From Patescibacteria group bacterium (lineage in GTDB: Bacteria > Patescibacteriota > Microgenomatia > UBA1406), in assembly GCA_041665145.1 (NCBI GenBank), contig JBAYJK010000001.1, positions 293,629-357,628 of the forward strand: 64,000 nt of DNA, read 5' to 3'. The stretch's first letter is position 1; each line of letters starts with the position of its first letter. Under the pieces are notes generated by a model that saw only the letters and a program-made list of their open reading frames with translations, made no database searches and had not been told where the DNA came from. The position numbers and the translations under genes are program-made. Below are positions 17,166 through 62,788 of this stretch, in pieces.

Positions 17166-17198
17166 TTCGGGATTATAGCGACACCATACCCTATAGTC

Positions 17199-17227
17199 TT
17201 GACCGTTAGGACAAAATATGCTATAAT
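17199..17227 (+). promoter_or_regulatory. sigma70-type promoter (TTGACC-N17-TATAAT)
   Basis: TTGACC at 17199-17204, a 17-nt spacer, and TATAAT at 17222-17227. It lies 30 nt upstream of ATG 17257. Confidence 0.55.
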
Positions 17228-17256
17228 CCTGACCTAATTAGCAATCTAACTGACAA

Positions 17257-35120: not shown

Positions 35121-35621
35121 ATGCTGTATAAATTAAAAGAATTGCTGTATCAATTCATCATGTGCGGGTATTTTCGTATTCACCGGACATACCTGGGCTT
35201 ATTCGTGAAAAAGATGGGTAAAAACGTTGAAATTTGGAGGTCGGTGCACTTTATGGATCCGAAAAATATTTCCATCGGTGATAATGTCATGTTGGCGAGA
35301 AACGTCGATCTTTACGGATTCGGAGGTTTGGAAATCGGAAACCACACGGCAATCGGAGCATATTCCGCCATTATTACCCATAATCATATATTTACGGATA
35401 ACAACAAACCTATTCTGGAACAGGGTCATAAGAGGGAAAAAGTAACCATCGGCACAGATGTGTGGATCGGCACCCATGCCATAATTCTTCCGGGAGTGAC
35501 CATCGGTAATGGGGCTGTTATCGGGGCGGGGGCGGTCGTCACAAAAGACGTGCCGAAATACGCGGTGGTTGTTGGAAACCCAGGGAAGATTGTGAAATAC
35601 AGAAATTCAAAAATCAAATAA
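35121..35621 (+). CDS. hexapeptide-repeat (LbH) acetyltransferase
   Basis: [31 protein letters not shown]...[51 protein letters not shown]. Confidence 0.8.
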
Positions 35622-35724
35622 CAACCCTCAAATCAAATTCAAAGTTCAAATGACAACCTTCAAAAGGTTTTGAATTTTAGATTTGGAATTTGATTTGTCA
35701 TTTGTAGATTTGAATTTTGAATTT
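35602..35724. repeat. AT-rich inverted-repeat hairpin element, gene-less form (copy A)
   Basis: The left arm is GAAATTCAAAAATCAAATAACAA... and the right arm is ...TGATTTGTCATTTGTAGATTTGAATTTTGAATTT. The element overlaps the stop codon of the upstream gene. Confidence 0.85.
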
Positions 35725-35746
35725 GTGAATGTACTAGAATGTTAGT

Positions 35747-35965
35747 ATGTACCTTCTATCACTCTTTCCTATAAAACTCAGCATTCATCAATTAGTGCTT
35801 ATCACCAACTCCATAGTTTTAATCGGCCTTTTGATTGCCGTGGAACTGTGGTCGACAAATGACACCCATAAAGACAAAGCGAAATATTACTACCCGCTGA
35901 TTATGTTGTTTATATTCCTCATGATGTATGCCGGATATGTACAGTTTGCAACACCCAACCTATGA
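35747..35965 (+). CDS. small membrane protein
   Basis: 72 aa with two hydrophobic helices. TAGAAT lies 6 nt upstream of the ATG, and the stop overlaps the next start as ATGA. Confidence 0.4.
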   Translation: MYLLSLFPIKLSIHQLVLITNSIVLIGLLIAVELWSTNDTHKDKAKYYYPLIMLFIFLMMYAGYVQFATPNL

Positions 35966-36705
35966 GTAACTTACGTAAAAACCAAATTTTCATTGCACTT
36001 GCCGCCATTCTTATACTCGCATCACGCATGATCTCTTTTTATTCCCAGGACTACGGGTATCTGGTAAATACAACGCTCTTTGTCGTGTTTGTGTTGTTAA
36101 GCATGTACCGGAAAGATTTACAGAGAGTGCTTATATTACTCTCGGTTATTCCTGCCGCCACAGTTTTCACCATTTCTCTTCCCGTTCCGGCTATTTTCCA
36201 AACACTTCTTTTTTACGCCGCCATATTCCTGACAGGTTTGATTTACTGGTATTTTTTTGAGGAGCAAAAAAAAGTAACCGTATTGCGCTCCGTCACCGCC
36301 AAGCAACTGGTTGTGGGTGTCATCGCCGGGCAAGCGCTCGGGATCGCAAGTTATGTGTTGCTTCCCAAAGTGTATTGGCCGCAGGAGCTCATGACTGCCG
36401 GGCGCATAACTGTTCCCCTGGTTTTTCTTATTTTTATATTGCTTGCAATAACCGAAGAATTGTACTTTCGCCGTTTATTGCAGAAGGAGGTGGGGGAAGT
36501 GGTGAACCCGCATAATGCGCTCGCACTTTCGGCGTGGCTCTACGCATCCCTTGCCGGATCTTTGGGTTTCGGCGTCACATTCTTAGCGCTTGTTGCGGGA
36601 ATCACAATGGCACTCTTGTATTCGGAGAACAAATCGACACTCCAAACGGTCATAGTAAATATCACTATGAAGCTTGTTTTTCTTGCCGCTATCTTCCTTA
36701 TGTGA
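35962..36705 (+). CDS. CPBP-family (CAAX protease-like) intramembrane protease
   Basis: Polytopic protein with the ITEELYFRRLLQ motif (EExxxR), diagnostic of the CPBP/Rce1-like family. Confidence 0.7.
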   Translation: MSNLRKNQIFIALAAILILASRMISFYSQDYGYLVNTTLFVVFVLLSMYRKDLQRVLILLSVIPAATVFTISLPVPAIFQTLLFYAAIFLTGLIYWYFFEEQKKVTVLRSVTAKQLVVGVIAGQALGIASYVLLPKVYWPQELMTAGRITVPLVFLIFILLAITEELYFRRLLQKEVGEVVNPHNALALSAWLYASLAGSLGFGVTFLALVAGITMALLYSENKSTLQTVIVNITMKLVFLAAIFLM

Positions 36706-36749
36706 TTATGATCATTGTGTTGTGAAGAGTAATGATGTATATTGACATC

Positions 36750-37193
36750 ATGAAATCCCGTTTAGCAGGTTTTATTGCCCTGTTTTTATGCCTTTCATTG
36801 TTGATGGTTCCTGCTGTTTTGGCAAATAACCCAGGAGTAACCAGAGTTAGGGGAAATGTCTATGATCAAGACAACGGGGGAGCGGGAATCGGTGGTCTCA
36901 CCGTCAACGTAACTTGCAACGGAAATTCACGAAACGCCACAACTGACGGCAACGGATTATATGTGGTCGACTATACCCGTTCGGAATGCCCGCAGTTTGG
37001 ACCGGTCAGTTCTGCCGTTTCGCACAACGGACAATCCCAGTCTGACACGGTATATGTATCCGACGTGTATACTGCTACGATGGACTTTTACTTCGGGACG
37101 ATAAGCGTTCCGGAATTCGGCATGATCCCGGGAGCGATTGCGGCAATTGGATCAATTGGAACATACCTGGCACTTAGGAGAAAGAGAACCTAA
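36750..37193 (+). CDS. small secreted protein with a C-terminal VPEFG-TM-RRKR sorting signal (PEF/PEFG-CTERM-like)
   Basis: Signal peptide MKSRLAGFIALFLCLSLLMVPAVLA. A carboxypeptidase-regulatory-like beta domain (RGNVYDQDN...GLTVNVTCNGNSRNATTDGNGLY). The C-terminus is ISVPEFGMIPGAIAAIGSIGTYLALRRKRT. The start is trimmed from the ORF-track 36732, with TATATT 6 nt upstream. Confidence 0.65.
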   Translation: MKSRLAGFIALFLCLSLLMVPAVLANNPGVTRVRGNVYDQDNGGAGIGGLTVNVTCNGNSRNATTDGNGLYVVDYTRSECPQFGPVSSAVSHNGQSQSDTVYVSDVYTATMDFYFGTISVPEFGMIPGAIAAIGSIGTYLALRRKRT

Positions 37194-37315
37194 ATTCAAA
37201 GCTCAAATCTACAACCTTCAAATCAAATTCAAAATTCAAATGATAACCTTCAAAAAGTTTTGAATTTTAGATTTTGAATTTGATTTGTCATTTGTCTATT
37301 TGAATTTTGAATTTT
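37192..37315. repeat. AT-rich inverted-repeat hairpin element, gene-less form (copy B)
   Basis: AAATTCAAAGCTCAAATCTACAA...TGATTTGTCATTTGTCTATTTGAATTTTGAATTT. It starts inside the upstream stop codon. Confidence 0.85.
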
Positions 37316-37340
37316 ACTCATCTGCGCCTATAATACCTCT

Positions 37341-38288
37341 ATGCCTTTATTAAAGCGCTTACTCTTATTTTCTGCGCTGTTTATTGTCCTCTCCGGCCTT
37401 GTGGGTCCGTGGGTGATCAGCACCAAGCTTCTCTACGGTTTCTATTTCTTTATCTACCCGAACATGGGGAAGTTACTCATGTTTTCGTTTATCGTGTTTG
37501 TACTTCTTACAAAAGACAAGTTGAATTCAATCGGTGTCATCCCCGCGAAGGCGGGGATCCAGGAGCATCTGGATTCCCGGTCACGTATGCCGGGAATGAC
37601 AGTATCAACTATTCTTTGTTTTCTTTCCTTCGTTCTTTTGATTCCCTTCTACGTATTCGGAAACATGTTGCTCAAAGAACCTTCATTTTTCACCAATCTT
37701 CCTCTTTCTCTCTTTGTTCATTTCCTGTTAATTTCTTCTGTTTTGACTTTATTTGTTTCGGTTTTCGGATTTCGATATTCGATTTTTTTTGCAAAGCAGT
37801 TTAAACGTGAACTAGTTGTCTGTTGCCTGTTGTCTGTTATCTACTATTTCGCGATTTTTTACGTATGGCATTTCTGGCCCCTACTTTCTGACGCAGTTTT
37901 GCAGTCGGTAAAATTCCTGTTCTCCCTATCATATAAAGACGTTATGTTTATTCCTCCACGTGCATTGTACGTTCACAACTTTACGGTGAGTATTGAAGAA
38001 GCCTGTTCGGGCCTCGACAGCATGTTCTTGTTTACGACGCTGTACATACTTATTGGGATTGTTGAACGGAAAACATTCAACATTGCTAAATTGTTGCTAT
38101 TGCTACCCGTAGCGCTTGTCGGCTTATTTCTTGTGAATGTTCTGCGCGTGTATACGCTTATTCTCGTCGGTGTGCTCATAGATCCGAAGCTGACCGTACA
38201 ACTCTTTCACACGTACCTTGGTATGGTTCTCTTCATGGTCTACTTTGCCTTATTTTGGAAAATCTTTTACGGATGGATGAGGAAGTAG
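37341..38288 (+). CDS. exosortase/archaeosortase-family transpeptidase
   Basis: Polytopic protein with the family Cys/Arg/His signature blocks: SIEEACSGLDSMF, LVNVLRVYTLIL and FHTYLGMVLF. It carries an in-frame GC-rich repeat insertion (see findings). Confidence 0.7.
   Translation: MPLLKRLLLFSALFIVLSGLVGPWVISTKLLYGFYFFIYPNMGKLLMFSFIVFVLLTKDKLNSIGVIPAKAGIQEHLDSRSRMPGMTVSTILCFLSFVLLIPFYVFGNMLLKEPSFFTNLPLSLFVHFLLISSVLTLFVSVFGFRYSIFFAKQFKRELVVCCLLSVIYYFAIFYVWHFWPLLSDAVLQSVKFLFSLSYKDVMFIPPRALYVHNFTVSIEEACSGLDSMFLFTTLYILIGIVERKTFNIAKLLLLLPVALVGLFLVNVLRVYTLILVGVLIDPKLTVQLFHTYLGMVLFMVYFALFWKIFYGWMRK
37536..37601. repeat. GC-rich triple-hairpin palindromic element (copy 1), in frame inside the exosortase CDS
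   Basis: GTCAT-CCCCGCGAAGGCGGGG-ATCCAGGAGCATCTGGAT-TCCCGGTCACGTATGCCGGGA-ATGAC, translated as VIPAKAGIQEHLDSRSRMPGMT. Confidence 0.8.
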
Positions 38289-38290
38289 GC

Positions 38291-38397
38291 AAAATTCAAA
38301 GCTCCAATAACAACCTTCAAGTCAAATTCAAAATTCAAATTTTAAACATTTAGATTTTGAATTTGATTTGTCATTTGTCTATTTGAATTTTGAATTT
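38291..38397. repeat. AT-rich inverted-repeat hairpin element, gene-less form (copy C)
   Basis: AAAATTCAAAGCTCCAATAACAA...TGATTTGTCATTTGTCTATTTGAATTTTGAATTT. It begins 3 nt after the exosortase stop. Confidence 0.85.
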
Positions 38398-38412
38398 ATT
38401 TTTCAATTCGGA

Positions 38413-38441
38413 TTGACACAAATTTTATCTTAATGTATACT
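38413..38441 (+). promoter_or_regulatory. sigma70-type promoter TTGACA-N17-TATACT
   Basis: TTGACA at 38413-38418 and TATACT at 38436-38441. GTG 38448 follows after 6 nt, which suggests a leaderless transcript. Confidence 0.55.
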
Positions 38442-38447
38442 ACTTTT

Positions 38448-38912
38448 GTGCAGAATATCACAAAAAAACTAACATTTTCAGCTCTTGTTACTCTTATCCT
38501 CTTTAGCTTAGTGTTAATTCCACAGGCATCGGCACAACCGGCACCCGTTGAACAAACAATTGTAAACGGCCAGGTGAAAGACGGAGCAAACAATCCTGTT
38601 TCCGGAGCATCGGTACAGACAAATTGTAATGGTAATGTGCGAAACACATCAACAAACGGAGACGGTAAATATCAAACGGTCTACACCGGGACGGAATGTC
38701 CGGTTAACACCGTTGTTACCGCTCAAGCTACAGCCGGCAGCCAAAGCGGCGGTGGCAGTGGTCAGGTACAAGAGGTGATTAACACCGGTACCGTGATCAT
38801 CAACGTTGCTCTCATCAATATAGCTGTTCCAGAATTCGGACTCATGACCGGAGCAGTCGCTGCCGTCGGATCATTGGCAGTATTCTTGAAAATGCGAAAG
38901 AAAACAGTCTAG
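38448..38912 (+). CDS. small secreted protein with a C-terminal VPEFG-TM-RKK sorting signal (paralog of 36750..37193)
   Basis: Signal peptide (M)QNITKKLTFSALVTLILFSLVLIPQASA. The same CNGN...ECP domain layout as the paralog. The C-terminus is IAVPEFGLMTGAVAAVGSLAVFLKMRKKTV. The ORF-track start 38433 lies inside the -10 box, so GTG 38448 is preferred. Confidence 0.6.
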   Translation: MQNITKKLTFSALVTLILFSLVLIPQASAQPAPVEQTIVNGQVKDGANNPVSGASVQTNCNGNVRNTSTNGDGKYQTVYTGTECPVNTVVTAQATAGSQSGGGSGQVQEVINTGTVIINVALINIAVPEFGLMTGAVAAVGSLAVFLKMRKKTV

Positions 38913-38917
38913 GTGCA

Positions 38918-39394
38918 GAAATTCAAAGATCAAATCTACAACCCTCAATTGAAATTCAAATGACAACCTTCAATTGAAATCTAAAATTCAAAATACAAAG
39001 AATTATTTCTTGTTAATGGCGCCGAATATGAGAGAGAGTTCTTTGGCTTCCTGAAGGAGCCTAGTAATTAAAGCACGTTGTGTTTCATCTGCAAACTCGA
39101 TCATTCGCAACCAATGGATAGTTTCCTTCGCCTCTTTTTTGCAAATACCAATCTTTGCATGGAAATCTTTTTTGGAGTCGGCACCGTTGGCTTCCATATA
39201 GTTGGCTCCGACACTTGTTGCAGATCTTATTATTTGCGAGATTAGTGGAACAGTAATTATTGTTTTTCTGATGCTGTTGCACAACGAAATTATTTGAGTG
39301 CCAAATAGGGTAGTTCGCACCTCAAGGTCGTATATTTTTTCTCCATTTGAATTTTGAATTTGATTTGTCATTTGTAGATTTGAAGGTTGAATTT
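38918..39394. repeat. 477-bp inverted-repeat-bounded unit enclosing a four-helix-bundle gene (long form, copy 1)
   Basis: 85-nt left arm, a minus-strand ORF at 39003..39371, and a 23-nt right arm. The termini are AAATTCAAAGATCAAATCTACAA on the left and, as reverse complement, AAATTCAACCTTCAAATCTACAA on the right. Confidence 0.75.
39003..39371 (-). CDS. four-helix-bundle protein (23S rRNA intervening-sequence protein family)
   Basis: 122 aa with LISQIIRSATSVGANYMEANGADSKKDFHAKIGICKKEAKETIHWLRMI, which matches the TIGR02436/PF05635-type pattern (R.A.S...N..EA......DF..K...A.KE..ET..WL). Confidence 0.8.
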   Translation of the reverse strand: MTNQIQNSNGEKIYDLEVRTTLFGTQIISLCNSIRKTIITVPLISQIIRSATSVGANYMEANGADSKKDFHAKIGICKKEAKETIHWLRMIEFADETQRALITRLLQEAKELSLIFGAINKK

Positions 39395-39470
39395 ATTATC
39401 CACCTCATGTTTATCAAATACCACGGTTTATAGGCATCATCTACGCCCAAAGTACTGTATAATGTATCAC

Positions 39471-40022
39471 ATGATTCGTCCCTTATTTAGACTCGCCAAG
39501 CGCTTGCACAGTGACTCTTTGTACAGAAATTCGTTGAGTGTTGTTAATAAGCTTAAGAATATAAAATTTCTTCCGTACATTTTGCATACCCAACTGATCC
39601 GGAGTCAGTTTAAAAGAATGGGAAAAAACTTTCTTGCAGAAGGCCATTTTGGGTACACAAAACCTAAACAAATCGAGATCGGTGATAATGTATATTTCAA
39701 TCACGATGTTCTATTAATAGTACATGGCAGTGCGTCAATAAAAATAGGAAATGATGTTTTAATAGGCCCATACTCATATATTTTTACAAAAATGCATGGG
39801 TATTACACACGGAGAATTCCAATAAGAAGTCAAAAGGAAACATTTAAATCTATAGTTATAGAGGATGGTGTCTGGTTGGGTGCAAATGTTATCGTGATGC
39901 CCGGAGTAACGATTCACAAGGGGGCTATTGTTGGAGCCGGTGCTGTCGTGACAAAGGATGTAAAATCGTACACAATTGTTGGTGGGATACCTGCAAAATT
40001 TATCAGAGACAGGCCCGCTTAA
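39471..40022 (+). CDS. hexapeptide-repeat acetyltransferase with a flippase-derived N-terminal segment
   Basis: LbH core IEIGDNVYFNHDVLLIVHGSASIKIGNDVLIG...[40 protein letters not shown] 39471 is preceded by TATAAT 7 nt upstream. The N-terminal LAKRLHSDSLYRNS is shared with the next flippase gene. Confidence 0.7.
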   Translation: MIRPLFRLAKRLHSDSLYRNSLSVVNKLKNIKFLPYILHTQLIRSQFKRMGKNFLAEGHFGYTKPKQIEIGDNVYFNHDVLLIVHGSASIKIGNDVLIGPYSYIFTKMHGYYTRRIPIRSQKETFKSIVIEDGVWLGANVIVMPGVTIHKGAIVGAGAVVTKDVKSYTIVGGIPAKFIRDRPA

Positions 40023-40178
40023 TTAGTCTTACATTAAAAAGAAGGTTATGTTAAACAAGTTATCAAGCGGTTTGTCTGTCATTATGCGCTATAATATGTG
40101 CTAAACTTAACAGTTTCCTGGTATTTTCAGCAATCTAGCAATTGTCATGTATCAATATAGCAATCTAACAATTTAACA

Positions 40179-42868: not shown

Positions 42869-42886
42869 TTGAATAAAAGAGTGAGT

Positions 42887-49009: not shown

Positions 49010-50154
49010 TGATATTCTTTCAATAAACTTTCGCAAGCATTAGTAAGCAAATCAGCATCGCGCTTTAATTTCAATTCTTGTTTTCCGAACAAGAAATTTG
49101 TTATGGCTTTTGAGAGCAACTTTGCGTCCAATTTAACTACGTAATTCCAATCAGAATTTCTTGCTGTGTTACGGGCCCCATTATCTTTTTCATCTACTGT
49201 AATAACAGGAATTCCGCATGCGTTGGCCTCTAAAACCACGAGCCCAAAGCCTTCTCGGGAGGATGGTAACACGAAAACTTTCGAAGATTTTATCAGGGAA
49301 TAGAGATCATCATGGTTTGGAAAAAAGTTTTTGAAGACTATATTAGTCTCGAGTCGAAGGTCGCGCGTCAACTTGTCAAGACGTTCTTTTTCCGGCCCTT
49401 CTCCGACGATAATACATTTTACGTTGGGCTTGGTTTTTTTGACTTCGGCAATGGCCTTAATTAAAATGTCTACGTTTTTGTGTTTAAGTAACCTGCCGGC
49501 GAATATGATGTCGCTTTTTTCTTTGGAAGGTTTTACTTTCAATATATGATCATAGTCAATAGTGTTCGAAATGGTGCTAATCGGTTTTTTCATATGCAGT
49601 TCATTTACCAGTTTGTCCGTAGTGTGTTGTGAAATAGAGATTACTTTATCCGGAAAATACGTACTTATTTTTTCAACTAAGTATGCAAGAAATCCTTTAA
49701 CCGGTCCGGAATATTCTTGCCAGTACGTAAGTCCCCAAACTTCGTTCCACGTTACTATCATCTTTCTGCCTTTTACCAAACAAACCAGTTTTGTGAAAAT
49801 ATGTGGAAAGTAGGGCATTTGGTCGACGTCTATAACGTCCCAATCTTCACGAATAAGTTTTAAACAGCTTAGTCCGAAAAAAATCGCTTGTTTAATCGAC
49901 CGCCGTTCTCCGGAATACAGCGGATAGTAAGGAGAAATCGCATGTAACGTGACTCCGTTTTCAACTCGAATGTTCCTCGACTCGTGACTCGTGACTCGTG
50001 ACTTTTGACTCTTGTCTTGATCCCACCAACGCATGCAATATATATACACATCATGTCCCATTGCGGCCAAGCGGGTAGAGATATCGAATAACCTTTTTTC
50101 TTTTCCGCCTTTATTATAGGGGTATATGGCGTCGGTTACGTAAGCAATTCTCAT
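49000..50154 (-). CDS. GT4-family glycosyltransferase containing an internal heptanucleotide repeat
   Basis: The start is trimmed to ATG 50154 (MRIAYVTDAIYPYNKGG...). LPSSREGFGLVVLEANACGIPVI, an E-x7-E region. The start overlaps the upstream stop as ATGA. Confidence 0.75.
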   Translation of the reverse strand: MRIAYVTDAIYPYNKGGKEKRLFDISTRLAAMGHDVYIYCMRWWDQDKSQKSRVTSHESRNIRVENGVTLHAISPYYPLYSGERRSIKQAIFFGLSCLKLIREDWDVIDVDQMPYFPHIFTKLVCLVKGRKMIVTWNEVWGLTYWQEYSGPVKGFLAYLVEKISTYFPDKVISISQHTTDKLVNELHMKKPISTISNTIDYDHILKVKPSKEKSDIIFAGRLLKHKNVDILIKAIAEVKKTKPNVKCIIVGEGPEKERLDKLTRDLRLETNIVFKNFFPNHDDLYSLIKSSKVFVLPSSREGFGLVVLEANACGIPVITVDEKDNGARNTARNSDWNYVVKLDAKLLSKAITNFLFGKQELKLKRDADLLTNACESLLKEYQWK

Positions 50155-50861: not shown

Positions 50862-50873
50862 ATTATTTTTTAT

Positions 50874-50989
50874 AAATTCAAAGCTCAAATGACAACCTTC
50901 AATTGAAATTCAAAATTCAAGCTTCAAAATAGTTTTGAATTTTAGATTTTGAATTTGATTTGTCATTTGTATATTTGATTTTTGAATTT
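50874..50989. repeat. AT-rich inverted-repeat hairpin element, gene-less form (copy F; coordinates +/-2)
   Basis: AAATTCAAAGCTCAAATGACAACCTTCAATTGAAATTCAAAATTCAAGC...TGATTTGTCATTTGTATATTTGATTTTTGAATTT. It abuts the stop codon of 50990..51445. Confidence 0.8.
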
Positions 50990-51445: not shown

Positions 51446-51514
51446 AAGGCAGGATTTGTAACTTACAGCACAATTATACTGGAAATAGCCTAGAATTAGC
51501 AAGCGAACAAGGGT

Positions 51515-51694
51515 AAATTCAAAGCTCAAATGACAACCTTCAATTGAAATTCAAAATCTGAATGTCACCCCCGGAACAAAGTACCGGGGATCCAGATTCC
51601 ATCCCTGGATTCCCGACTGGATCGGGAATGACACCTTTTGGAGTTTTGAATTTTGAGTTTCATTTGTAGATTTGTCCATTTGAATTTTGAATTT
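51515..51694. repeat. composite repeat: AT-rich hairpin element (copy G) with a GC-rich triple-hairpin element nested at its centre (51563..51633)
   Basis: AAATTCAAAGCTCAAATGACAACCTTCAATTGAAATTCAAAATCTGAA [TGTCACCCCCGGAACAAAGTACCGGGGATCCAGATTCCATCCCTGGATTCCCGACTGGATCGGGAATGACA] CCTTTTGGAGTTTTGAATTTTGAGTTTCATTTGTAGATTTGTCCATTTGAATTTTGAATTT. Confidence 0.8.
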
Positions 51695-51717
51695 AAGAAA
51701 AATATATAATAGAACCA

Positions 51718-53274: not shown

Positions 53275-53750
53275 AAATTCAAAATTCAAATCTACAACCC
53301 TCAATTGAAATTCAAATGACAGCCTTCAATTGAAATCTAAAATTCAAAATTCAAAGAATCATTTCTTGTTAATGGCACCGAAAATGAGTGAAAGTTCTTT
53401 GGCTTCCTGAAGAAGCTTCAGAATAAACGATTTCTGAGTTCCGTCGGCAAATTCAATCATTCGCAACCAATGAATTGTTTCTTTCGACTCTTTTTTGCAG
53501 ATACTTATTTTTGCATGGAAATCTTTTTTTGAATCGGCGCCATTAGCTTCCATGTAATTGGCGCCCACACTTGTTGCAGATCTGATAATCTGCGAAATCA
53601 ACGGTGCAGTGACAATAGTTTTCTTTACATTGTTACAAAGAGTGATTACTTGAGTACCGAATACGCTTGTCCGTTCTTCCAGATCGTATATTTTCTCTCC
53701 ATTTGAATTTTGTGCTTGATTTGTCATTTGTAGATTTGAAGGTTGAGTTT
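53274..53750. repeat. 477-bp inverted-repeat-bounded unit enclosing a four-helix-bundle gene (long form, copy 2)
   Basis: It has the same length and layout as 38918..39394. The left arms match at 81 of 85 nt and the right arms at 22 of 23 nt by hand alignment. Confidence 0.75.
53359..53727 (-). CDS. four-helix-bundle protein (23S rRNA intervening-sequence protein family), paralog
   Basis: 122 aa. It differs from the 39003..39371 product at about 19 positions and shares the SQIIRSATSVGANYMEANGADSKKDFHAKI...KETIHWLRMIEFAD core. Confidence 0.8.
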   Translation of the reverse strand: MTNQAQNSNGEKIYDLEERTSVFGTQVITLCNNVKKTIVTAPLISQIIRSATSVGANYMEANGADSKKDFHAKISICKKESKETIHWLRMIEFADGTQKSFILKLLQEAKELSLIFGAINKK

Positions 53751-53877
53751 CTAATAAGTCTTATGATTCCTGACTCCTAACTCTTGACTCATATATAGTT
53801 TCCCTCGCTTCTCTCGGGAAATCAACGGTTTATACACCTCAATACTCATACTATAGGTTTATTTGATATAATACCAT

Positions 53878-54720: not shown

Positions 54721-54777
54721 CATAAAAAGTTGTCCATATTTGATTTCTTATCTGCAGTGCGTTATAATAGTCCGTAT

Positions 54778-55680
54778 ATGACACGTGAGCGAACGCCTAA
54801 TCCTACAGACCTGCTTGCTGCTCTCAGAGACACATCCGGATATGTTGATTTTGCACGAGTAGTCGTGGCTCGAAAGATGGGTAGAGTAGAGCTTTCCGCT
54901 ATTGGAGCAGAACTTGACCAGATATTCAGAAAAGACTTGGTTATGTGTGCCCGACAAGGTATTGTAGAATCGGTTCCTTCAGGCACTCTTAATTGTGTTC
55001 CCAGGCCAAACTTATTTGATGTTTCTGTTGCCGCGGTTTTTCGGGCGCTTGATCAACTGAAAATTATGGTTCCCCTGACAGAAATACCCCACGTACAACG
55101 TGTGGAGGCAGTTATGGCTGCATTTACCCGGAGAGCTCTTCGGGAAATACGTATGACTTCACGAAATGCACAGTACATGAATCCCGGAATCGTTCTTGCC
55201 GAAGATATGCTGGATGAAGCGTCGGATGCCCGTATGGGTTTGTTGTTAGGAATAAGTGCACCTGAGCTGAGAAGAAGTTTGGTAGATCCGCATGTTGCCG
55301 AAATGAAAGATTCTGCAGCTATTCGGCAACGGGAGGATTCTATGCCTAAAGCCGGACGGAATATACAGATAGGTGAACAAATGGTTGCTACGGCGCACGA
55401 GGGCTTCAGTATGACTCAGTCGCCGCGTGATTCTCTGTATTATTGGATTGCCAGGGCACAAGCATTTGATATTCCCCTCAACGATCATGAAGTAGTATTG
55501 CTCCATGCAATTGCGCAAACAACAAATGCCCGACATACGCTTCATCAGACAATTGAGGCCAACAAGCTTTCTCCCGCGCTTGACCAACCGTCGTCCGAGG
55601 CACTTATTGCCGGTATGTCAGACTTGAATGCTCTCCACACGTGGGGAAGAGCAAGGACGGGAATTGTGACTGCTAAGTAA
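54778..55680 (+). CDS. hypothetical protein
   Basis: Long ORF with no family recognised. ATG 54778 (MTRERTPNP...) is preferred over the TTG at 54730. Confidence 0.35.
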   Translation: MTRERTPNPTDLLAALRDTSGYVDFARVVVARKMGRVELSAIGAELDQIFRKDLVMCARQGIVESVPSGTLNCVPRPNLFDVSVAAVFRALDQLKIMVPLTEIPHVQRVEAVMAAFTRRALREIRMTSRNAQYMNPGIVLAEDMLDEASDARMGLLLGISAPELRRSLVDPHVAEMKDSAAIRQREDSMPKAGRNIQIGEQMVATAHEGFSMTQSPRDSLYYWIARAQAFDIPLNDHEVVLLHAIAQTTNARHTLHQTIEANKLSPALDQPSSEALIAGMSDLNALHTWGRARTGIVTAK

Positions 55681-55785
55681 AATTCAAAGCTCAAATGACA
55701 ACCTTCAATTGAAATTCAAAGTTCAAATTTTAAATATTTAGATTTTGAATTTGATTTGTCATTTGTAGATTTGAATTTTGAATTT
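55679..55785. repeat. AT-rich inverted-repeat hairpin element, gene-less form (copy I)
   Basis: AAAATTCAAAGCTCAAATGACAACCTTCAATTGAAATTCAAAGTTCAAATTTTAAATATTTAGATTTTGAATTTGATTTGTCATTTGTAGATTTGAATTTTGAATTT. It overlaps the upstream stop codon. Confidence 0.85.
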
Positions 55786-55821
55786 AGTGTTTCTTCCCAG
55801 TACGCATACTATAGGCCGAAT

Positions 55822-57087: not shown

Positions 57088-57090
57088 CCC

Positions 57091-57993
57091 ATGACATATA
57101 TTGAATTTCAACCACCACAACTACCTGTTCCGGACTATCCGAAAAGCCCTCAACCATGGTCTCAATTTGATTCGGCGCGACCTGTCGAATGGATTCCGAC
57201 GATGATTCCCGCCGATAAGCTTACGGATATGGTGCGAATGGTAAACAAAGGAGTATGGATTGCCCGCCGCACAGATCCGCAAACCGCTGTGCTTGTACCG
57301 GCACCTGCTTTTAATGAAACCTGGAGTATTGCAAACGGGGGAGGCGTGACTGAAGTATGGTTACGGACAGCAGATGTCATGCCGCATGCTACGGTACCAT
57401 ATGACGCGTGGAATGTCCAAGATTACAAATTGACTGTTTATCCACAGTTTAGTGAACAGGCAGTTAGTACGGTTCACACTCTCGCTCATACGCTGGGACG
57501 GGATCCGGAACGATATCGTCAGGGTGATGCGATGCATAACCGCACGCTTGCATTTTTGAATACACCGTTTCAAGCAGTTGTCACTCCGCACGTACTGGTA
57601 GTAGGAAATATGAATAAAGCTCTTTTTACTATTACCGATCGAGGCGTATTTTATCGGGAATCAACGGGATTGGCACAGATACGGAAGCCGTATGAGGAAT
57701 ACTATCAATTGCCGGGAGTTCGTTATATCCCGCCCAGTAACGGGGAATTCGGTGAGTTCAGAATACATCTTGCGACTTTGTCGGTGCCCAATGATATTTT
57801 TGGAGAAAAAAGAGGTTCTATGCCGACCGTATTCGAAAAATATTTGACGGTTCGGTTTTGCAGCACATCGCCCAACGATATTGGTTCATCAGTACCATGT
57901 ACATTGGGAGAACCACACCGGAGATCGTTCGATTCACAATCGGTCCGTGATAGAATCGTAAATGTTTCGATAGATCTAGAAATGAAAAACTAG
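57091..57993 (+). CDS. hypothetical protein
   Basis: 300-aa ORF starting 3 nt after the upstream stop. No family recognised. Confidence 0.35.
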   Translation: MTYIEFQPPQLPVPDYPKSPQPWSQFDSARPVEWIPTMIPADKLTDMVRMVNKGVWIARRTDPQTAVLVPAPAFNETWSIANGGGVTEVWLRTADVMPHATVPYDAWNVQDYKLTVYPQFSEQAVSTVHTLAHTLGRDPERYRQGDAMHNRTLAFLNTPFQAVVTPHVLVVGNMNKALFTITDRGVFYRESTGLAQIRKPYEEYYQLPGVRYIPPSNGEFGEFRIHLATLSVPNDIFGEKRGSMPTVFEKYLTVRFCSTSPNDIGSSVPCTLGEPHRRSFDSQSVRDRIVNVSIDLEMKN

Positions 57994-58005
57994 TAATTTA
58001 TAATT

Positions 58006-58770
58006 ATGGCCATGAATCTCGAACAAACAGCCACACTGAGAGAATTAGAACGTTCCCTGTCGCAACGTGCCGAACTTGCACATCGCGAACCATGTGAGCT
58101 TCTGGAGTTTTGGCGGAGATTCTATGAGTTACTTGCCCGACAAATAGCATATAGAGAACGTGCTGAACCGGAGTTTTGCGACGTACCTGAACTTCCGTGG
58201 TCTACGGACGCGGTTCGTGAACTCGTGCATGACGGATGGTATGTGGTGTATATGCCCCCGGAGTTTTCCGAAGAAGCTCATCGCCCGCTCCTTATGTCAG
58301 TACTTCCTATGGTAGTGCAGAGGCCGGAGTTTAGTCCACTGGATTTGACTGATCCGCATATGCCGGTGGAACGCGAGTCTGCAGTTACGGAGGGGTGGGT
58401 TGCTGTTCGCCCGGAAACACCGCAAACCCTTATGTGTTCCTCGACCTTTCCGTGCGTTATTAAAGCACTTGAATCACGCGTCTTGCATCCGGCGACACTC
58501 AATATGGGGATAGTTACTGCTGTTTTACATGATGCTATCATGCGAACAAAACCAAGACCCCTGATGCGCCCAAGTTTTTTGTGTATGGGAACAAGCGGAG
58601 GAGTTAAACCTACAACAGCACATCTTGACAGGCACACGTATCATGGAATTCGGTATCTCTTAGATATTCAACCCCAACCGTTCGGTAAAAAAAGCGTCTT
58701 GACTATCGCGGAAGAACCCGGTCCGGAGATTCCCGGAATGTGCGGGGTTTTGGCGGTAAGACGATTATAG
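58006..58770 (+). CDS. hypothetical protein
   Basis: 254-aa ORF with no family recognised. Confidence 0.35.
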   Translation: MAMNLEQTATLRELERSLSQRAELAHREPCELLEFWRRFYELLARQIAYRERAEPEFCDVPELPWSTDAVRELVHDGWYVVYMPPEFSEEAHRPLLMSVLPMVVQRPEFSPLDLTDPHMPVERESAVTEGWVAVRPETPQTLMCSSTFPCVIKALESRVLHPATLNMGIVTAVLHDAIMRTKPRPLMRPSFLCMGTSGGVKPTTAHLDRHTYHGIRYLLDIQPQPFGKKSVLTIAEEPGPEIPGMCGVLAVRRL

Positions 58771-58807
58771 TTAATGGTTAATAGTTTAGAGTTTATAGTT
58801 AATAGTT
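58766..58807. repeat. heptanucleotide-periodic array (6 units)
   Basis: TATAGTT AATGGTT AATAGTT TAGAGTT TATAGTT AATAGTT. It overlaps the stop of the upstream gene and lies upstream of the third four-helix-bundle gene. Confidence 0.8.
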
Positions 58808-58863
58808 GGGAATGTGGTATATAAACCGTTGTTTTGTCACGAACTAAGTAATACGATGGACCC

Positions 58864-59241
58864 GTGATCAATAGTTTCACTGATTTAAGCTCATGGCAAA
58901 TTTCTCATCAACTCGTCATTGAGGTTTATCAAGTGACTAAATTATTTCCTACTACTGAAACGTACTCTCTCACAGATCAGATGAGAAGGGCAGCGGTATC
59001 GATAACAAGTAATATTGCTGAGGGTTTCGGCAGAAAAGCTGTTAAAGAGAAAATCCAGTTCTACCACTTATCACTTGGATCAACTACCGAGTTACATAAT
59101 CAATGCATGTTGGCAAGAGATCTGGGATACGTAAATACTGATTACTATGAAAAAATCGAACAAAGAATAATTGTAGTTTACAAGCTTATTTGGGCTTCGA
59201 TCCGCTCATTCAAACAATTTTCAAATCACTCTAAACTATAA
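58864..59241 (+). CDS. four-helix-bundle protein (23S rRNA intervening-sequence protein family), divergent third copy
   Basis: GTG start. FTDLSSWQISHQLVIEVYQVTKLFPTTETYSLTDQMRRAAVSITSNIAEGFGRKAVKEKIQFYHLSLGSTTELHNQ is a textbook pattern for this family. Confidence 0.85.
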   Translation: MINSFTDLSSWQISHQLVIEVYQVTKLFPTTETYSLTDQMRRAAVSITSNIAEGFGRKAVKEKIQFYHLSLGSTTELHNQCMLARDLGYVNTDYYEKIEQRIIVVYKLIWASIRSFKQFSNHSKL

Positions 59242-59257
59242 ACCATCAACCCTAAAC
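59230..59257. repeat. heptanucleotide-periodic array (4 units), inverted relative to 58766..58807
   Basis: TCTAAAC TATAAAC CATCAAC CCTAAAC. The reverse complement reads GTTTAGG GTTGATG GTTTATA GTTTAGA, the same GTTNNNN phase as the upstream array. It overlaps the 3' end of the gene. Confidence 0.7.
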
Positions 59258-59421
59258 TAATATCCCAACACCATCACGTGTTCATAATACCTTCCGAAAT
59301 AAAACGCAAGAATCGGCACTACTACGAAGATTGCCATTGCAAGTGCTTTGGAGAACGGTGTAACAGTCGTTGCCCACTTCGGCAATGAGGATTTGGTTTG
59401 TTTTACTTTTTTAACAGACAT
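59257..59421 (-). CDS. small membrane protein (tentative)
   Basis: The ORF is trimmed to MSVKKVKQTKSSLPKWATTVTPFSKALAMAIFVVVPILAFYFGRYYEHVMVLGY. The ORF-track extension MNFEF... is repeat-encoded. Confidence 0.3.
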   Translation of the reverse strand: MSVKKVKQTKSSLPKWATTVTPFSKALAMAIFVVVPILAFYFGRYYEHVMVLGY

Positions 59422-59460
59422 ATGTATTGAAAAACTAATAATGCCTGTATTCAATATAAC

Positions 59461-59744
59461 AAATTCAAAATTCAAATGACAACCCTCAAGTGAAATTCAA
59501 AATTCGAATCTACAACCCTCAATTCAAATTCAAAGCTCAAACATCATTCCCGCACAAGTGATGTCATTCCCGCGTAGGCGGGAATCCAGGAACTTTGTAT
59601 CTGGATCCCCGGTATTTGTATTCCGGGGATGACAAACATATCTAGATTGCCGCGCTTCATCCCGCTGAGCGGGACTTCGCTCGCAATGACGCCTTTTGAA
59701 TTTTGAATTTGATTTGTCATTTGTCTATTTGAATTTTGAGTTTT
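59461..59744. repeat. composite repeat: AT-rich hairpin element (copy J) with nested GC-rich elements (59541..59693)
   Basis: The arms are AAATTCAAAATTCAAATGACAACCCTCAAG... and ...TTTTGAATTTTGAATTTGATTTGTCATTTGTCTATTTGAATTTTGAGTTTT. The centre holds a triple-hairpin copy at 59563..59633 plus a second GC-rich palindrome (TTGCCGCGCTTCATCCCGCTGAGCGGGACTTCGCTCGCAATGAC). Confidence 0.8.
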
Positions 59745-59767
59745 ACCTGTCCTGGTATAATACCCAC

Positions 59768-61018
59768 ATGCGCAAAACCGTCGTGATTTTTTTTCTCTGT
59801 ATCGTTCTTGCTGTTTCCTATGTGGTCACTCACGTGTTTCGTGCCTACAGTGTCGAGGGGGGAAAAACCCGACTGTTCCCCATACAATCCATAGATACTA
59901 TGAAATATTCGCGGGATATTGCGCGGGAGAAATTACATGATGCCTCGTTCGACAAACATATAGATACACAAGTTAAAAACATCGCCGCAACCGGGGCAAC
60001 GCACATTGCTATCGCAACTCCATATGACGAAGAGTTTATTCCGTTTTTGACCCGTTGGGTCAGGGCTGCGAGGAAATACAACCTGAATGTATGGTTCAGG
60101 GGTAATTTTTCCGGATGGGAAGAATGGTTTGATTACCCGGAAATCACGAAAGATGAACATATCCGAAAAACAAAAGCATTCATCGCACGGCACGCAGATA
60201 TGTTTGTTGACAACGACTTATTCAGCGCGTGTCCCGAATGCGAAAATGGGGCGCTTGGTGATCCGCGACAGACAGGGCGGCTTGCAGAGTATCGGCAATT
60301 TCTGATTGATGAGTACCAGGTAACAACCGAGGCGTTCAACCGGATCGGGAAGCGCGTGCAATCAAACATCCTGTCAATGAACGGCGATGTTGCCCGACTG
60401 GTTATGGATAGGGAAACGACCCGCGAACTCGGAGGAATGGTGACGATCGACCATTATGTCGAAACACCGGAACAATTGGTGGGGGACGCGGAGCGAATTG
60501 CAGGTAACAGCGGAGGACTGGTAATGCTCGGCGAATTCGGGACACCGATTCCCGATATCCATGGTGAGTTGACTGAAGATCAACAGGCGATGTGGGTGGG
60601 AGCGGGACTGTATGGATTGGCAAAATCCAAAAGCATTGCCGGAGTTAATTATTGGACCAACAAAGGGAGCAGTACGGCGCTGTGGAATGACGACGATACC
60701 CCGCGCGCGGTTGTTTCGACCATCACCGATTTTTACAAACCGCTTGTTATCCGGGGAACGGTGCGTGACGAACTCGGTTTCTTGCTTTCGGATGTAACGG
60801 TGACCTCCCCATTTGAAACAGTACATACGAAGACCGGGGCGTACAGAGTTTTCTTTATCACCGGCGATCACATAGAATTCCAGAAGCCGGGATACATAAA
60901 CGTAAGCGAATCTCTGCGGCGTACGGATGTGCGTGACTTGGTATTGGATGTAACGATGCAGCCCACTAACCCCTCATTACTCTATAAGATATTATTGCCG
61001 ATATTACGTAGAAAGTAG
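59768..61018 (+). CDS. membrane-anchored TIM-barrel glycosidase-like protein with a C-terminal carboxypeptidase-regulatory-like domain (tentative)
   Basis: The start is trimmed to ATG 59768 (MRKTVVIFFLCIVLAVSYVV), with TGGTATAAT 6 nt upstream. CPECENG and MLGEFG are possible clan-A catalytic Glu blocks. The C-terminus is IRGTVRDELGFLLSDVTVTS...TGAYRVF. Confidence 0.4.
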   Translation: MRKTVVIFFLCIVLAVSYVVTHVFRAYSVEGGKTRLFPIQSIDTMKYSRDIAREKLHDASFDKHIDTQVKNIAATGATHIAIATPYDEEFIPFLTRWVRAARKYNLNVWFRGNFSGWEEWFDYPEITKDEHIRKTKAFIARHADMFVDNDLFSACPECENGALGDPRQTGRLAEYRQFLIDEYQVTTEAFNRIGKRVQSNILSMNGDVARLVMDRETTRELGGMVTIDHYVETPEQLVGDAERIAGNSGGLVMLGEFGTPIPDIHGELTEDQQAMWVGAGLYGLAKSKSIAGVNYWTNKGSSTALWNDDDTPRAVVSTITDFYKPLVIRGTVRDELGFLLSDVTVTSPFETVHTKTGAYRVFFITGDHIEFQKPGYINVSESLRRTDVRDLVLDVTMQPTNPSLLYKILLPILRRK

Positions 61019-61657
61019 TTTTTCAAATTTCGAGAGATCAGCAATGGTATAGAGATTTTCCTTTTTGATGAGATATTTTTGGTCAATGAGCTTTTGCAGT
61101 TCCCTGCTTACCGTTTCTCGGGTGACTCCCGCGAAACTACCGACCTCTTTGTGAGTGAGGGGCATGGTAATTTCTACGCTCATGCCTGTTCTTTTTCCGA
61201 ACCGTCTGGAAAAAACCAGAAAAACAACAACAACTTTACATCGTGCGCAGGTAGACATAATGTTTTCGAGCATGCTGCTCATCGTTTCCAAACCGCGGGA
61301 AAGACGGGTTGTAAGATCGAAAAGTACTTCCGGATTGTTGTGTAAAAAGGTAATAACCGCTTCTTTCGGCGCGCGTCGGGTAACGACCCGGGAAGTGGCC
61401 TCAAAAAAATAGTGGTTCGGGAGGTGTCCATTCAGTACATAGACGGTGGGTATATATGTCCCGGCTTTAAACAGCATGATTGCTTTTTCTTCGCCGTCGG
61501 CGGACAGAGAGTATTGTCGGATATATCCCGACTCTATATAGTAAATGTGTTGCAGCGGATTTTCATCTGCCCGAATTATTACGTCGCCTTTTTCAAACGT
61601 CCGTGAGTCAAATTGGCTGAAAAAAGCTTTCAACTTATTTTCAACTGAAGAATTCAT
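61004..61657 (-). CDS. Crp/Fnr-family transcriptional regulator (second copy)
   Basis: cNMP-binding-like N-domain and the HTH LTHKEVGSFAGVTRETVSRELQKLIDQKYL. Confidence 0.8.
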   Translation of the reverse strand: MNSSVENKLKAFFSQFDSRTFEKGDVIIRADENPLQHIYYIESGYIRQYSLSADGEEKAIMLFKAGTYIPTVYVLNGHLPNHYFFEATSRVVTRRAPKEAVITFLHNNPEVLFDLTTRLSRGLETMSSMLENIMSTCARCKVVVVFLVFSRRFGKRTGMSVEITMPLTHKEVGSFAGVTRETVSRELQKLIDQKYLIKKENLYTIADLSKFEKLLST

Positions 61658-61700
61658 TTGTGTAGTATAGCAAAAATAGTATAAGAGATCACAAGGGTAA

Positions 61701-61791
61701 ATTTCTAATTTCTAGTTTCTAGTTTCTATTAAACTATCCACTCTCAACTATCGACTATAAACTATTAACTCTTAACTATAAACTCTAATCT
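61701..61791. repeat. heptanucleotide-periodic array, 13 consecutive units
   Basis: ATTTCTA ATTTCTA GTTTCTA GTTTCTA TTAAACT ATCCACT CTCAACT ATCGACT ATAAACT ATTAACT CTTAACT ATAAACT CTAATCT. Confidence 0.85.
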
Positions 61792-61797
61792 TTAGCA

Positions 61798-61825
61798 TTG
61801 ACAAAAAAAGCACGTTTGTTATCAT
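61798..61825 (+). promoter_or_regulatory. sigma70-type promoter TTGACA-N16-TATCAT
   Basis: TTGACA at 61798-61803 and TATCAT at 61820-61825. ATG 61833 follows after 7 nt. Confidence 0.5.
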
Positions 61826-61832
61826 GAAGTCC

Positions 61833-62642
61833 ATGAAAAAAATAACGGCAAAAAACCAAACCCCTGTTACAAAATCCGTACCAGCTCCCGTTGCATCACA
61901 ACCCATGATGGATCCGATGCAGCAGATAGTCGCGATGCAGAAAATGATGCAGAAAATGTTTCTCATCGTTATTGTGCTTGTCGTAGCGGTTGGAGGTTTA
62001 TTGGTGAAAGACTTGGTGTTGAATAAAAATGCAGCGCCTGCAGCAAATACCGCGCCGACAGCAGGTGAACCGACTGACCCGTTTGCCTTAATCACGAAGT
62101 ATCCGACCATACAAAAAGATGATTATGTCCAGGGAGACAAAAACAGTAAATACCAGATGATTACGTACTCGGATTTGCAATGTCCGTTCTGTCATCGGTT
62201 CCATCCGACAACCCTTCAATTTCTTGAAAATCATAAGGATGTAGCGTTTGCGTACCGTCACTATCCGCTGACACAGATTCATCCGCAAGCCGTTCCGGCA
62301 GCAATAGCTTCGGAATGTGTGGCAAAACTGGGAGGTACGGATGCCTTTTTCAAGTTTATCGACAAGGTGAATACTGCCCCCGAAGATGCAGAAGGAGGAC
62401 TTGATGTAACCAAACTTGCAGGCTATGCGGTAGAATCCGGAGTCGACGAGTTTGCGTTCACCGCTTGTAATGATGCCCAGGACCAATCCCGCGTGGATGC
62501 GCAGCAAAAAACAGGAAATGAATTCGGAGTTTCGGGAACACCTTCATCATTCTTGGTTAATGTCAAAGACAAGAAGGCGGTCATGATCCCCGGAGCGTAT
62601 CCGATCGAACAGGTCGAACAGGCGTTTGAGAAGATCAAGTAA
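61833..62642 (+). CDS. DsbA-like thiol:disulfide oxidoreductase, membrane-anchored
   Basis: TM anchor FLIVIVLVVAVGGLLV and the thioredoxin-fold CxxC motif SDLQCPFCHRF. The ORF-track start 61824 lies inside the -10 box, so ATG 61833 is preferred. Confidence 0.7.
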   Translation: MKKITAKNQTPVTKSVPAPVASQPMMDPMQQIVAMQKMMQKMFLIVIVLVVAVGGLLVKDLVLNKNAAPAANTAPTAGEPTDPFALITKYPTIQKDDYVQGDKNSKYQMITYSDLQCPFCHRFHPTTLQFLENHKDVAFAYRHYPLTQIHPQAVPAAIASECVAKLGGTDAFFKFIDKVNTAPEDAEGGLDVTKLAGYAVESGVDEFAFTACNDAQDQSRVDAQQKTGNEFGVSGTPSSFLVNVKDKKAVMIPGAYPIEQVEQAFEKIK

Positions 62643-62655
62643 CGTTTGGGTTTGT

Positions 62656-62788
62656 AAATTCAAAGCACAAATAGACAAATTTACAAATCAAGCTTAAAAT
62701 TCAAAGGCTGAAACTTCAGGAATATTATGTTTGGTAACATTTGATTTTTGAATTTGATTTGTCATTTGTGGATTTGAATTTTGAATTT
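62656..62788. repeat. AT-rich inverted-repeat hairpin element, gene-less form (copy K, most divergent left arm)
   Basis: AAATTCAAAGCACAAATAGACAAATTTACAAATCAAGC...TTGATTTTTGAATTTGATTTGTCATTTGTGGATTTGAATTTTGAATTTT. Confidence 0.75.

Follow-up and report, generated by a model that had tools for sequence, protein, structure and literature searches.

What are the ten similar palindromic repeats that lie in 27 kb of a patescibacterial genome, and why do two of them enclose a gene? The genomes of bacteria of the candidate phyla radiation (CPR; Patescibacteria) are very small, and mobile DNA is generally considered scarce in them. The stretch analysed here, referred to as the window, comprises 64,000 nt of a Patescibacteria group bacterium of the Microgenomatia (assembly GCA_041665145.1, contig JBAYJK010000001.1, positions 293,629 to 357,628); it is ~43% G+C and its cumulative GC skew climbs steadily. 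An earlier note, made from the letters alone, had read eight gene-less hairpins in the window as internally deleted derivatives of units encoding a four-helix-bundle (4HB) protein, and had offered terminator or insulator action, promoter action and mobility as possible explanations. In our analysis the eight hairpins (106-284 nt) and two 476-nt units (U1 and U2) make up a ten-member repeat family, and the explanation that we favour, with a probability of about 0.6, is that all ten are non-autonomous insertional foldback repeats with variable apex cargo.

A repeat family with common ends

All eight hairpins were found at, or within 1-2 nt of, the coordinates given for them in the earlier note. 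On the plus strand of the window they are A (35603..35724, 122 nt), B (37192..37314, 123 nt), C (38292..38397, 106 nt), D (50874..50989, 116 nt), E (51515..51694, 180 nt), F (55680..55785, 106 nt), G (59461..59744, 284 nt) and H (62656..62788, 133 nt), and the long units are U1 (38919..39394) and U2 (53275..53750). The ten copies span 35.6-62.8 kb, every one in the same chromosomal orientation, and have ~45-55 nt at each end in common. The 14-mer GATTTGTCATTTGT has nine exact matches in the window, where 0.10 would be expected, and these mark A, B, C, D, F, G, H, U1 and U2; seven of the eight short copies thus keep the exact string, as had been claimed, and E has a variant of it. With up to 3 mismatches allowed, the terminal consensus matched 31 times against 0.17 expected, both ends of the ten copies included.

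Repeat grouping placed the ten right ends in one family (66 nt, 61-100% identity) and the ten left ends in one family (55 nt, 60-100% identity). Mean pairwise identity among the ten copies is 0.83 over the left 45 nt and 0.89 over the right 45 nt, and between long and short copies it is still 0.81 and 0.85, respectively, which confirms that the short hairpins and the 4HB units have common ends. Subfamilies can be recognised, with A, B and D 85-91% identical (A and B 91% over 122 nt, apex included), C and F 92% identical, and H, the most divergent copy, standing apart. The likeness of the two forms goes beyond AT-richness, as eight of the ten window copies contain the 20-mer GAATTTGATTTGTCATTTGT unchanged and arm variants specific to one other genome (PFL108, below) are common to both forms.

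The six simple copies (A, B, C, D, F and H) served to build a covariance model, with which the window was searched with filters off. The model scored A at 128.9 bits, B at 129.9 bits and E at 45.8 bits, and detected no additional full copy in the window and nothing at all in 1-35 kb. A sliding scan likewise found heptamer arrays confined to 35.6-62.8 kb of the window. At gathering thresholds, a tRNA was the sole Rfam match in the whole window.

Arm anatomy and folding

The arms are degenerate heptamer arrays, CAAAnnT-like on one strand, with a mean lag-7 autocorrelation of 0.56 compared to 0.25 in control sequence and further peaks at 13-14 and 20-21. Across the elements of 106-284 nt the inverted arms are 71-87% complementary (76% over the 55-nt arms of G), and the 42-nt arms of U1 are 79% complementary (inverted-repeat z 7.0). 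Either strand is predicted to fold into a stem of ~40-50 bp, and the stems contain 21-25% G+C. The six simple copies are predicted to form long imperfect hairpins of -29.6 to -35.8 kcal/mol, and their z-scores lie between -4.2 and -7.1 whichever strand is folded (A, -5.4; B, -6.6; C, -7.1; D, -5.5; F, -4.9; H, -4.2). In the predicted fold of every copy, a conserved 4x4 internal loop (CCTT opposite TCAT) leaves the 4HB start codon unpaired. The mini open reading frames (ORFs) that begin at this retained ATG run for 10-23 codons, and for 58 codons in G. Within the window the plus strand folds better in five of the six simple copies, through G·U pairs; strand-specific selection for an RNA was considered and rejected, as the asymmetry is gone over 22 elements from many genomes (14/22, p = 0.17).

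Two heptamer arrays of the window have no hairpin partner. One, at 61700-61795, consists of (TTTCTAG)n followed by AACTATA-type units and sits between divergent crp-like and dsbA-like genes; the other, at 49962-50030, is of (GACTCGT)n type and lies in or beside minus-strand glycosyltransferase genes. The largest stretches free of long ORFs in the first 35 kb, 5157-6149 and 16341-17257 (gaps of ~370-600 nt around short ORFs), contain no heptamer arrays and have no Rfam match.

The 4HB genes and their arms

U1 and U2 each encode a 122-aa 4HB protein of the PF05635/TIGR02436 family. In U1 the left arm occupies 38919-39000, the ORF 39003-39371 on the minus strand and the right arm 39337-39394, and the right arm holds the start codon and first codons of the 4HB gene (MTNQIQNSN). 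The ORF of U2 is at 53359-53727, also on the minus strand, and both genes are antisense to the flanking genes of the window. The closest solved relative of the encoded protein is PDB 2RLD; the protein is a small all-helical one, related to 2RLD and to Avd, and not a transposase. A PHROG search gave no match for the U1 or U2 protein. Domain scans of the window genes revealed no transposase, integrase, recombinase or reverse transcriptase among the genes scanned. Since no mobilising enzyme domain was found, short and long forms both look non-autonomous as far as is visible, and the autonomous/non-autonomous pairing envisaged in the earlier note is not borne out, because the long form encodes the 4HB protein and not a transposase.

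A third 4HB gene of the window (58864-59241; 125 aa) matches PF05635 more strongly than those of U1 and U2 do (E = 6e-34). Its product belongs to a different subfamily, with PDB 2GSC closest and a PHROG match to 'Avd protein of DGR', and its cassette (58765..59262, plus strand) is bounded by inverted arrays of a different heptamer (TAGTTAA / TTTAGAG; lag-7 autocorrelation 0.70, inverted-repeat z 6.9). Taking the window and the fetched loci together, 12 of 13 4HB genes, from several subfamilies, lie between significant inverted heptamer-like arrays (z = 3.5-16.9), and the arm sequence around them varies by subfamily. This ties a widespread protein family of unknown function, PF05635/TIGR02436, to a definable DNA context.

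Genes and arms have diverged at very different rates. The U1 and U2 proteins are 85% identical in amino acid sequence, with synonymous differences saturated (pS 0.72) and a dN/dS of ~0.04; third codon positions are only 50% identical and 14 of 32 four-fold sites match. The non-coding arms are 95% and 91% identical. By this measure U1 and U2 are old duplicates. Strong purifying selection on the 4HB protein is indicated by the low dN/dS despite saturated pS, and the arms are either constrained or homogenised, given 91-95% identity against 50% at third codon positions. In a multi-genome alignment of the elements 85.7% of cells pair, and double-sided changes affect 31 of 41 pairs. In shuffles the figure is 18.2 +/- 1.8, none of 500 attaining the observed count, and with slid partners it is at most 18. 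The alignment on which these figures rest is itself fitted to the covariance model and, read with that caveat, they show pairing that appears to be maintained by compensatory change across genomes.

Apex content

The members of the family differ in what they carry at the apex. A, B, C, D, F and H have nothing there, E and G have GC-rich palindromic elements, and U1 and U2 have the 4HB gene. The GC-rich elements belong to a second repeat family of 65-71 nt, in which GTCAT...ATGAC closes a set of three small hairpins. One copy forms the apex of G (59563-59633, next to further GC-rich palindromes), a variant forms that of E (~51556-51632), and their nesting explains why E and G are longer than the simple copies. 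A third copy (37536-37600) lies in frame within the exosortase gene, where it adds 16 residues that are not present in six homologues. Outside the window a similar GTCATTGCGA...TCGCAATGAC element is nested inside a heptamer hairpin of locus L076 (loci from other genomes are cited by L numbers), and with L015 this makes nested GC-rich elements at the apex of E, G, L015 and L076.

Internal deletion, as first proposed, is an unproven origin for the short forms. Their palindrome continues across the apex without a break, and a motif of the left arm of U1 and U2 recurs, as its complement, in the inner right arm of the short forms; a simple deletion of the long unit would for these reasons fail to reproduce them. 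The 4HB genes of L018 and L041 run the other way round with respect to the arm. From these comparisons, a hairpin module with variable apex cargo fits at least as well as a deleted long unit. A Gottesmanbacteria contig (L018 / L067, 1150-1760) has direct tandem 32-nt arm units (TTTGAATTTTGAATTTGATTTGTCATTTGTTA) on both sides of its 4HB gene, which is inverted relative to the window arrangement.

Occurrence in other genomes

The 20-mer was found in 22 stretches from species-representative genomes and in 43 metagenome stretches. Record titles that name a taxon are mostly CPR (Microgenomates, Roizmanbacteria, Gottesmanbacteria, Falkowbacteria and 'Saccharibacteria'); five records with the 20-mer are labelled Gammaproteobacteria, a label that was not verified. 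Most of these loci are gene-less hairpins of 84-167 nt and three are 4HB units of 440-457 nt, and the covariance model detected extra copies without the exact 20-mer in the fetched loci. The elements adjoin genes, with gaps typically of -30 to +15 nt, and their orientation relative to neighbouring genes is ~50:50 across genomes. In the Microgenomates metagenome-assembled genome (MAG) PFL108, the long unit L022 has the same left arm as the short copies L001, L008 and L016, and this PFL108-specific arm is unlike the left arm of the window. ORFs of 111-263 codons start at the arm ATG (MTNQIQ...) in L009, L010, L021, L031 and L057, and that of L009 reads like the C-terminal part of TrmD.

Some candidates were set aside. 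Matches in Woesearchaeota (L011, L019), in Undibacterium (L020) and in L040 are probably chance or non-hairpin occurrences of the 20-mer. L040 is the sole locus with a 23S gene, and the link to rRNA that it might have offered was rejected, as the 20-mer lies 1.1 kb upstream and outside any hairpin. Carriage by phages was rejected as well, the 20-mer being without a match in the viral contig collection.

Presence and absence at gene junctions

The proposal that the hairpins are mobile finds support in three operon junctions which, among genomes whose flanking protein is 79-94% identical, are empty, filled, or occupied by a different hairpin. Between prfA and prmC, L015 contains a 134-nt member with a nested GC palindrome, and in relatives whose PrfA is 80-84% identical the two genes are separated by 7 nt, or by 44 nt that include an unrelated palindrome. 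In a MacB-type operon of L001 and L063, a 108-nt member sits exactly between the TAA of the ATPase gene and the ATG of the permease gene. The two genes overlap in L077 and L078 (ATPase 79-82% identical), which have no element, and in L076 (ATPase 94% identical) the junction holds a different heptamer hairpin with nested GC-rich cargo. The adaptor-ATPase junction of the same operon is filled in L076 by another heptamer hairpin and is empty in L001. Heptamer hairpins are thus shown to have been gained, lost or replaced at defined junctions over short evolutionary distances. The sole regularity of the insertion sites is that the 5' (T)AAATTC of the element frequently merges with a TAA stop.

The relatives of the window itself are more distant. 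In two of them (~50% identity) the syntenic exosortase and glycosylation regions contain no copy in 21 kb each, and in one relative the spacer orthologous to that of B has an ordinary GC-rich terminator and TGGTATAAT, where the window has B and TATAAT.

A different spacer, between rpmE and prfA, was seen when L072 and L073 were compared with L074 and L075 (locus ~2615-3000). Relatives have these 385 nt in conserved form, and an unannotated RNA might be encoded there; the spacer varies at two sites by the presence or absence of ~22-nt CCTGCCTGCCGGCAGGCAGG palindromes. The CCTGCCTGCCGGCAGGCAGG palindrome also occurs at the apex of the L015 hairpin.

Position relative to genes and effects on expression

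Most window copies start 0-15 nt past an upstream stop codon, as had been noted. The left arm of A encodes the final codons and stop of the upstream hexapeptide transferase (acetyltransferase), and the predicted ending ...VKYRNSKIK* was indeed read there. B begins within the TAA stop of a PEF-CTERM gene, and TTGAAT-16-TATAAT and the start of the exosortase gene come after it, C starts 3 nt past the exosortase stop, and F overlaps the TAA stop of its upstream gene. D is the sole copy between two minus-strand genes, E and G each lie between divergent genes, and downstream of H there is TTGAAT-17-GATAAT and then a start codon. Arm sequence is read as protein not only at the acetyltransferase C-terminus and in MTNQIQ... 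N-termini elsewhere, but also in the C-terminal linker of SecA, where an arm-like heptamer stretch (12716..12770, plus strand) is read in frame (QQTQNSNLQISNQAQKSKNKK) and has 67% identity to the arm family. The SecA stretch directly precedes the zinc-binding CWCGSGKKWKKCH tail.

The terminator scan detected no G+C-rich stem followed by a T run at any window element. With no canonical terminators, and with E and G between divergent genes, a terminator or insulator role is not general. The statement that right arms lead into a -10 box and a start codon holds in part, as a properly spaced -35/-10 pair using the arm TTGAAT is present at B and H only. Distances from the right arm to the next start codon range from 17 to ~127 nt, and C uses its own TTGACA, outside the element. 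Only two of the eight copies supply a well-spaced -35, so a promoter-module role is not general either, and the promoter scan was barely above shuffled expectation (17 vs 15.3; 41 vs 26.4). Operon-internal members in other genomes lie 0-22 nt from the next start codon. Overall, this is more readily explained by selfish insertions that are tolerated, and whose side effects differ from copy to copy, than by one function for the host common to all.

Several genes of the window, starting at 35747, 37341, 51718, 53878, 55837, 59768 and 62806, have a -10-like box (TATAAT, TATACT or GATAAT, often with TG) 3-8 nt before the ATG and no Shine-Dalgarno sequence, an arrangement that suggests leaderless or near-leaderless mRNAs. 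The region 35962-38912 encodes a compact protein-sorting system composed of an Rce1-like CPBP protease, an exosortase/archaeosortase family protein (37341-38288) and, flanking the exosortase, two small secreted PEF-CTERM-like proteins that end in VPEFG, a hydrophobic stretch and a basic tail. Relatives keep the exosortase beside a similar small protein.

Insertion and the alternatives

If the ten copies are insertional foldbacks, they would spread by copy-and-insert, catalysed in trans by machinery outside the element, and would land or survive at stop/start junctions. Arms would be tolerated at such places because they quickly supply stops or harmless low-complexity codons and A/T-rich promoter-like sequence, and they would stay conserved because propagation or homogenisation would go on only for copies whose arms are intact. 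Transcribed copies would form long AU-rich duplexes, likely RNase III substrates by analogy with rRNA intervening sequences, and terminator, insulator or promoter effects would be secondary, copy-specific consequences.

Several observations weigh against this account. Neither a target-site duplication nor a recognisable target motif was found at the ten window copies or at the junctions compared, filled or empty. The ends are variable-length low-complexity arrays and not crisp terminal inverted repeats, and the scanned window genes include no transposase, recombinase or reverse transcriptase. All ten window copies point the same way, compared to an orientation relative to flanking genes of ~50:50 across genomes. 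The polymorphism rests on members of the family in other CPR genomes, the nearest available relatives of the window being only ~50% identical. Slippage-driven growth in situ, together with recombination, may contribute, and a service to the host would lead one to expect conserved arms and compensatory pairing just as much.

Service to the host, in which the hairpins would be terminators or insulators, protectors of mRNA 3' ends or RNase III sites kept by selection and not selfish DNA, is an alternative that we consider unlikely. It would account for the many copies that fill the spacer from 0-15 nt after a stop codon, for arms far better conserved than synonymous sites and for the compensatory change that keeps them paired; the canonical GC-rich terminator and TGGTATAAT that replace B and its TATAAT in a relative point the same way, and the stems of rRNA intervening sequences of like architecture are RNase III substrates (PMC4990558). 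Yet the terminator scan was negative at every hairpin, E and G stand between divergent genes where no terminator is needed, some copies lie in frame inside coding sequence, and there is no preferred orientation to transcription (~50:50) or asymmetry of folding between strands (14/22, p = 0.17). Members have also entered operons whose genes are closely coupled (prfA-prmC; ATPase-permease), where the next start codon is 0-22 nt away, at junctions that evidently need no hairpin, because close relatives have overlapping genes there. Another possibility is that the elements are portable promoter or translation-start modules, the outward TTGAAT serving as a -35 or UP element and the ATG-bearing arm as a ready start. 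B and H, in which TTGAAT, 16-17 nt and TATAAT or GATAAT directly precede starts, would be examples, a -10 box lies 3-8 nt upstream of the ATG in many genes of the window, and ORFs of 111-263 codons begin at the arm ATG in five loci elsewhere. We regard this as highly improbable, since the spacing fits two of eight copies, the TTGACA of C lies outside the element, the promoter scan hardly exceeded shuffled sequence, D and many copies elsewhere face the 3' end of a gene, and the operon copies are too near the next ATG for a -10 box outside the element.

The palindromes might also have arisen without any transposition, through heptamer slippage at A/T-rich junctions and template switching, with gene conversion homogenising the products. 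The arms are, after all, tandem heptamers in variable number, and solo arrays without a hairpin exist at 61700-61795, at 49962-50030 and in the SecA linker; L018 has tandem 32-nt arm units, target-site duplications were not seen, and relatives 94% identical have different heptamer families at one junction. What makes this origin quite improbable is the non-periodic detail that separate loci have in common (A and B, 91% over 122 nt with the apex; C and F, 92%), the exact 20-mer across distant CPR lineages, and the travelling of whole 4HB genes with the arms. Dispersal of a template is still required, because independent origin in situ would not give common non-periodic detail.

One conjecture, which we consider distinctly unlikely, is that heptamer foldbacks and 4HB genes form one system in which an Avd-like 4HB pentamer binds its own arms sequence-specifically, as DNA or RNA, and recruits host enzymes to copy or move whatever DNA matching arms bracket; RNase III, a recombinase or a reverse transcriptase could be among these enzymes, and ORF-bearing rRNA intervening sequences would be a special case, in which such an element had landed in rRNA. 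To our knowledge, the origin of rRNA intervening sequences and the function of their ORFs have never been explained. If the conjecture were true, it would explain the role of those ORFs, a question open since 1993, and would define a class of mobile element that encodes just a non-enzymatic adaptor.

At least three small palindromic insertion families are interleaved in 27 kb of this genome, namely heptamer foldbacks of two arm types, the GC-rich three-hairpin element and related palindromes, and they occupy stop/start junctions, operon interiors and even in-frame sites within genes. Such repeats inflate or distort gene calls, giving false MTNQIQ... N-termini and proteins extended by a few residues at the C-terminus, and they probably break contigs in MAGs. 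The common arms are a handle for finding further members.

Comparison with known systems

In the searchable literature we came across neither these CPR elements nor a link between heptamer repeats and 4HB genes. The foldbacks can be seen as an extra-ribosomal counterpart of ORF-bearing intervening sequences (IVSs) in rRNA. The 23S rRNA IVS of Coxiella burnetii is 428-444 nt long and has an S23p ORF within a terminal-inverted-repeat stem that is cut by RNase III; ORF-less and ORF-bearing forms coexist, and the sporadic distribution is attributed to horizontal or insertional spread (PMC4990558). Like the IVSs of Leptospira and Coxiella, the long foldbacks, at 440-476 nt similar in size to the Coxiella IVS, place a PF05635 four-helix-bundle ORF in the loop of a terminal-inverted-repeat stem, and they too have ORF-less counterparts. 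They differ in lying outside rRNA (a tRNA being the sole Rfam match of the window), between or inside protein genes and in multiple copies, in having arms of ~45-80 nt made of heptamer arrays where the IVS has a 28-bp near-perfect stem, and in the antisense placement of the window 4HB genes relative to their neighbours.

In the REPIN/RAYT system (PMC3116915), REP doublets form ~100-nt hairpins, a tyrosine transposase gene is flanked by REPs and there is no target-site duplication. The points of likeness are multicopy extragenic hairpins of ~100 nt, a gene bracketed by its own repeats, genome-specific populations and the lack of target-site duplication. In contrast, the gene in the foldbacks encodes a 4HB protein, a relative of PDB 2RLD that lacks an HUH/Y1 transposase domain, and is itself multicopy (three in 64 kb), and the arms are AT-rich heptamers where REPs are G+C-rich. 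MITEs, or miniature inverted-repeat transposable elements, resemble the foldbacks in being small (under ~600 bp), multicopy and intergenic, with inverted ends and no transposase gene, and in differing in presence between related genomes, here at three junctions in other CPR genomes. Unlike MITEs, the foldbacks have no target-site duplication (ten window copies and the compared junctions), no known parent insertion sequence that encodes a transposase between the same ends, the long form encoding the 4HB protein only, and complementarity over their full length and not at the termini alone.

Rickettsia palindromic elements (RPEs) are palindromic repeats that are tolerated in frame inside protein-coding genes. 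The arm read in frame in SecA, the codons that an arm supplies to the acetyltransferase C-terminus and the GC-rich insert of 16 residues in the exosortase recall these elements, although the foldbacks are mostly intergenic, belong to an unrelated sequence family and have a CPR host. Cyanobacterial STRR and the TAACTGA heptamers of Beggiatoaceae, Cyanobacteria and Bacteroidetes are intergenic direct tandem repeats (PMC4679880); they have tandem heptanucleotide arrays and lineage-specific heptamers in common with the foldbacks, whose arrays are instead inverted pairs linked to 4HB genes.

PF05635 has been reported as Avd-like (PMC10053308), and the third 4HB protein of the window has its PHROG match in an Avd protein of diversity-generating retroelements. 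Such a retroelement is not apparent, however, as there is no reverse transcriptase domain in the scanned window genes and no template/variable repeat pair in the window, where the elements themselves are the sole long direct repeats. Intrinsic terminators differ from the foldbacks, whose stems are 21-25% G+C and at which no terminator-like site was called. Each of the systems that come closest has at least one defining feature that was looked for here and is missing from the foldbacks. Taken together, the architecture of the foldbacks is closest to that of ORF-bearing rRNA IVSs, their population behaviour to that of REPIN/RAYT and MITEs, and their tolerance in frame to that of RPEs.

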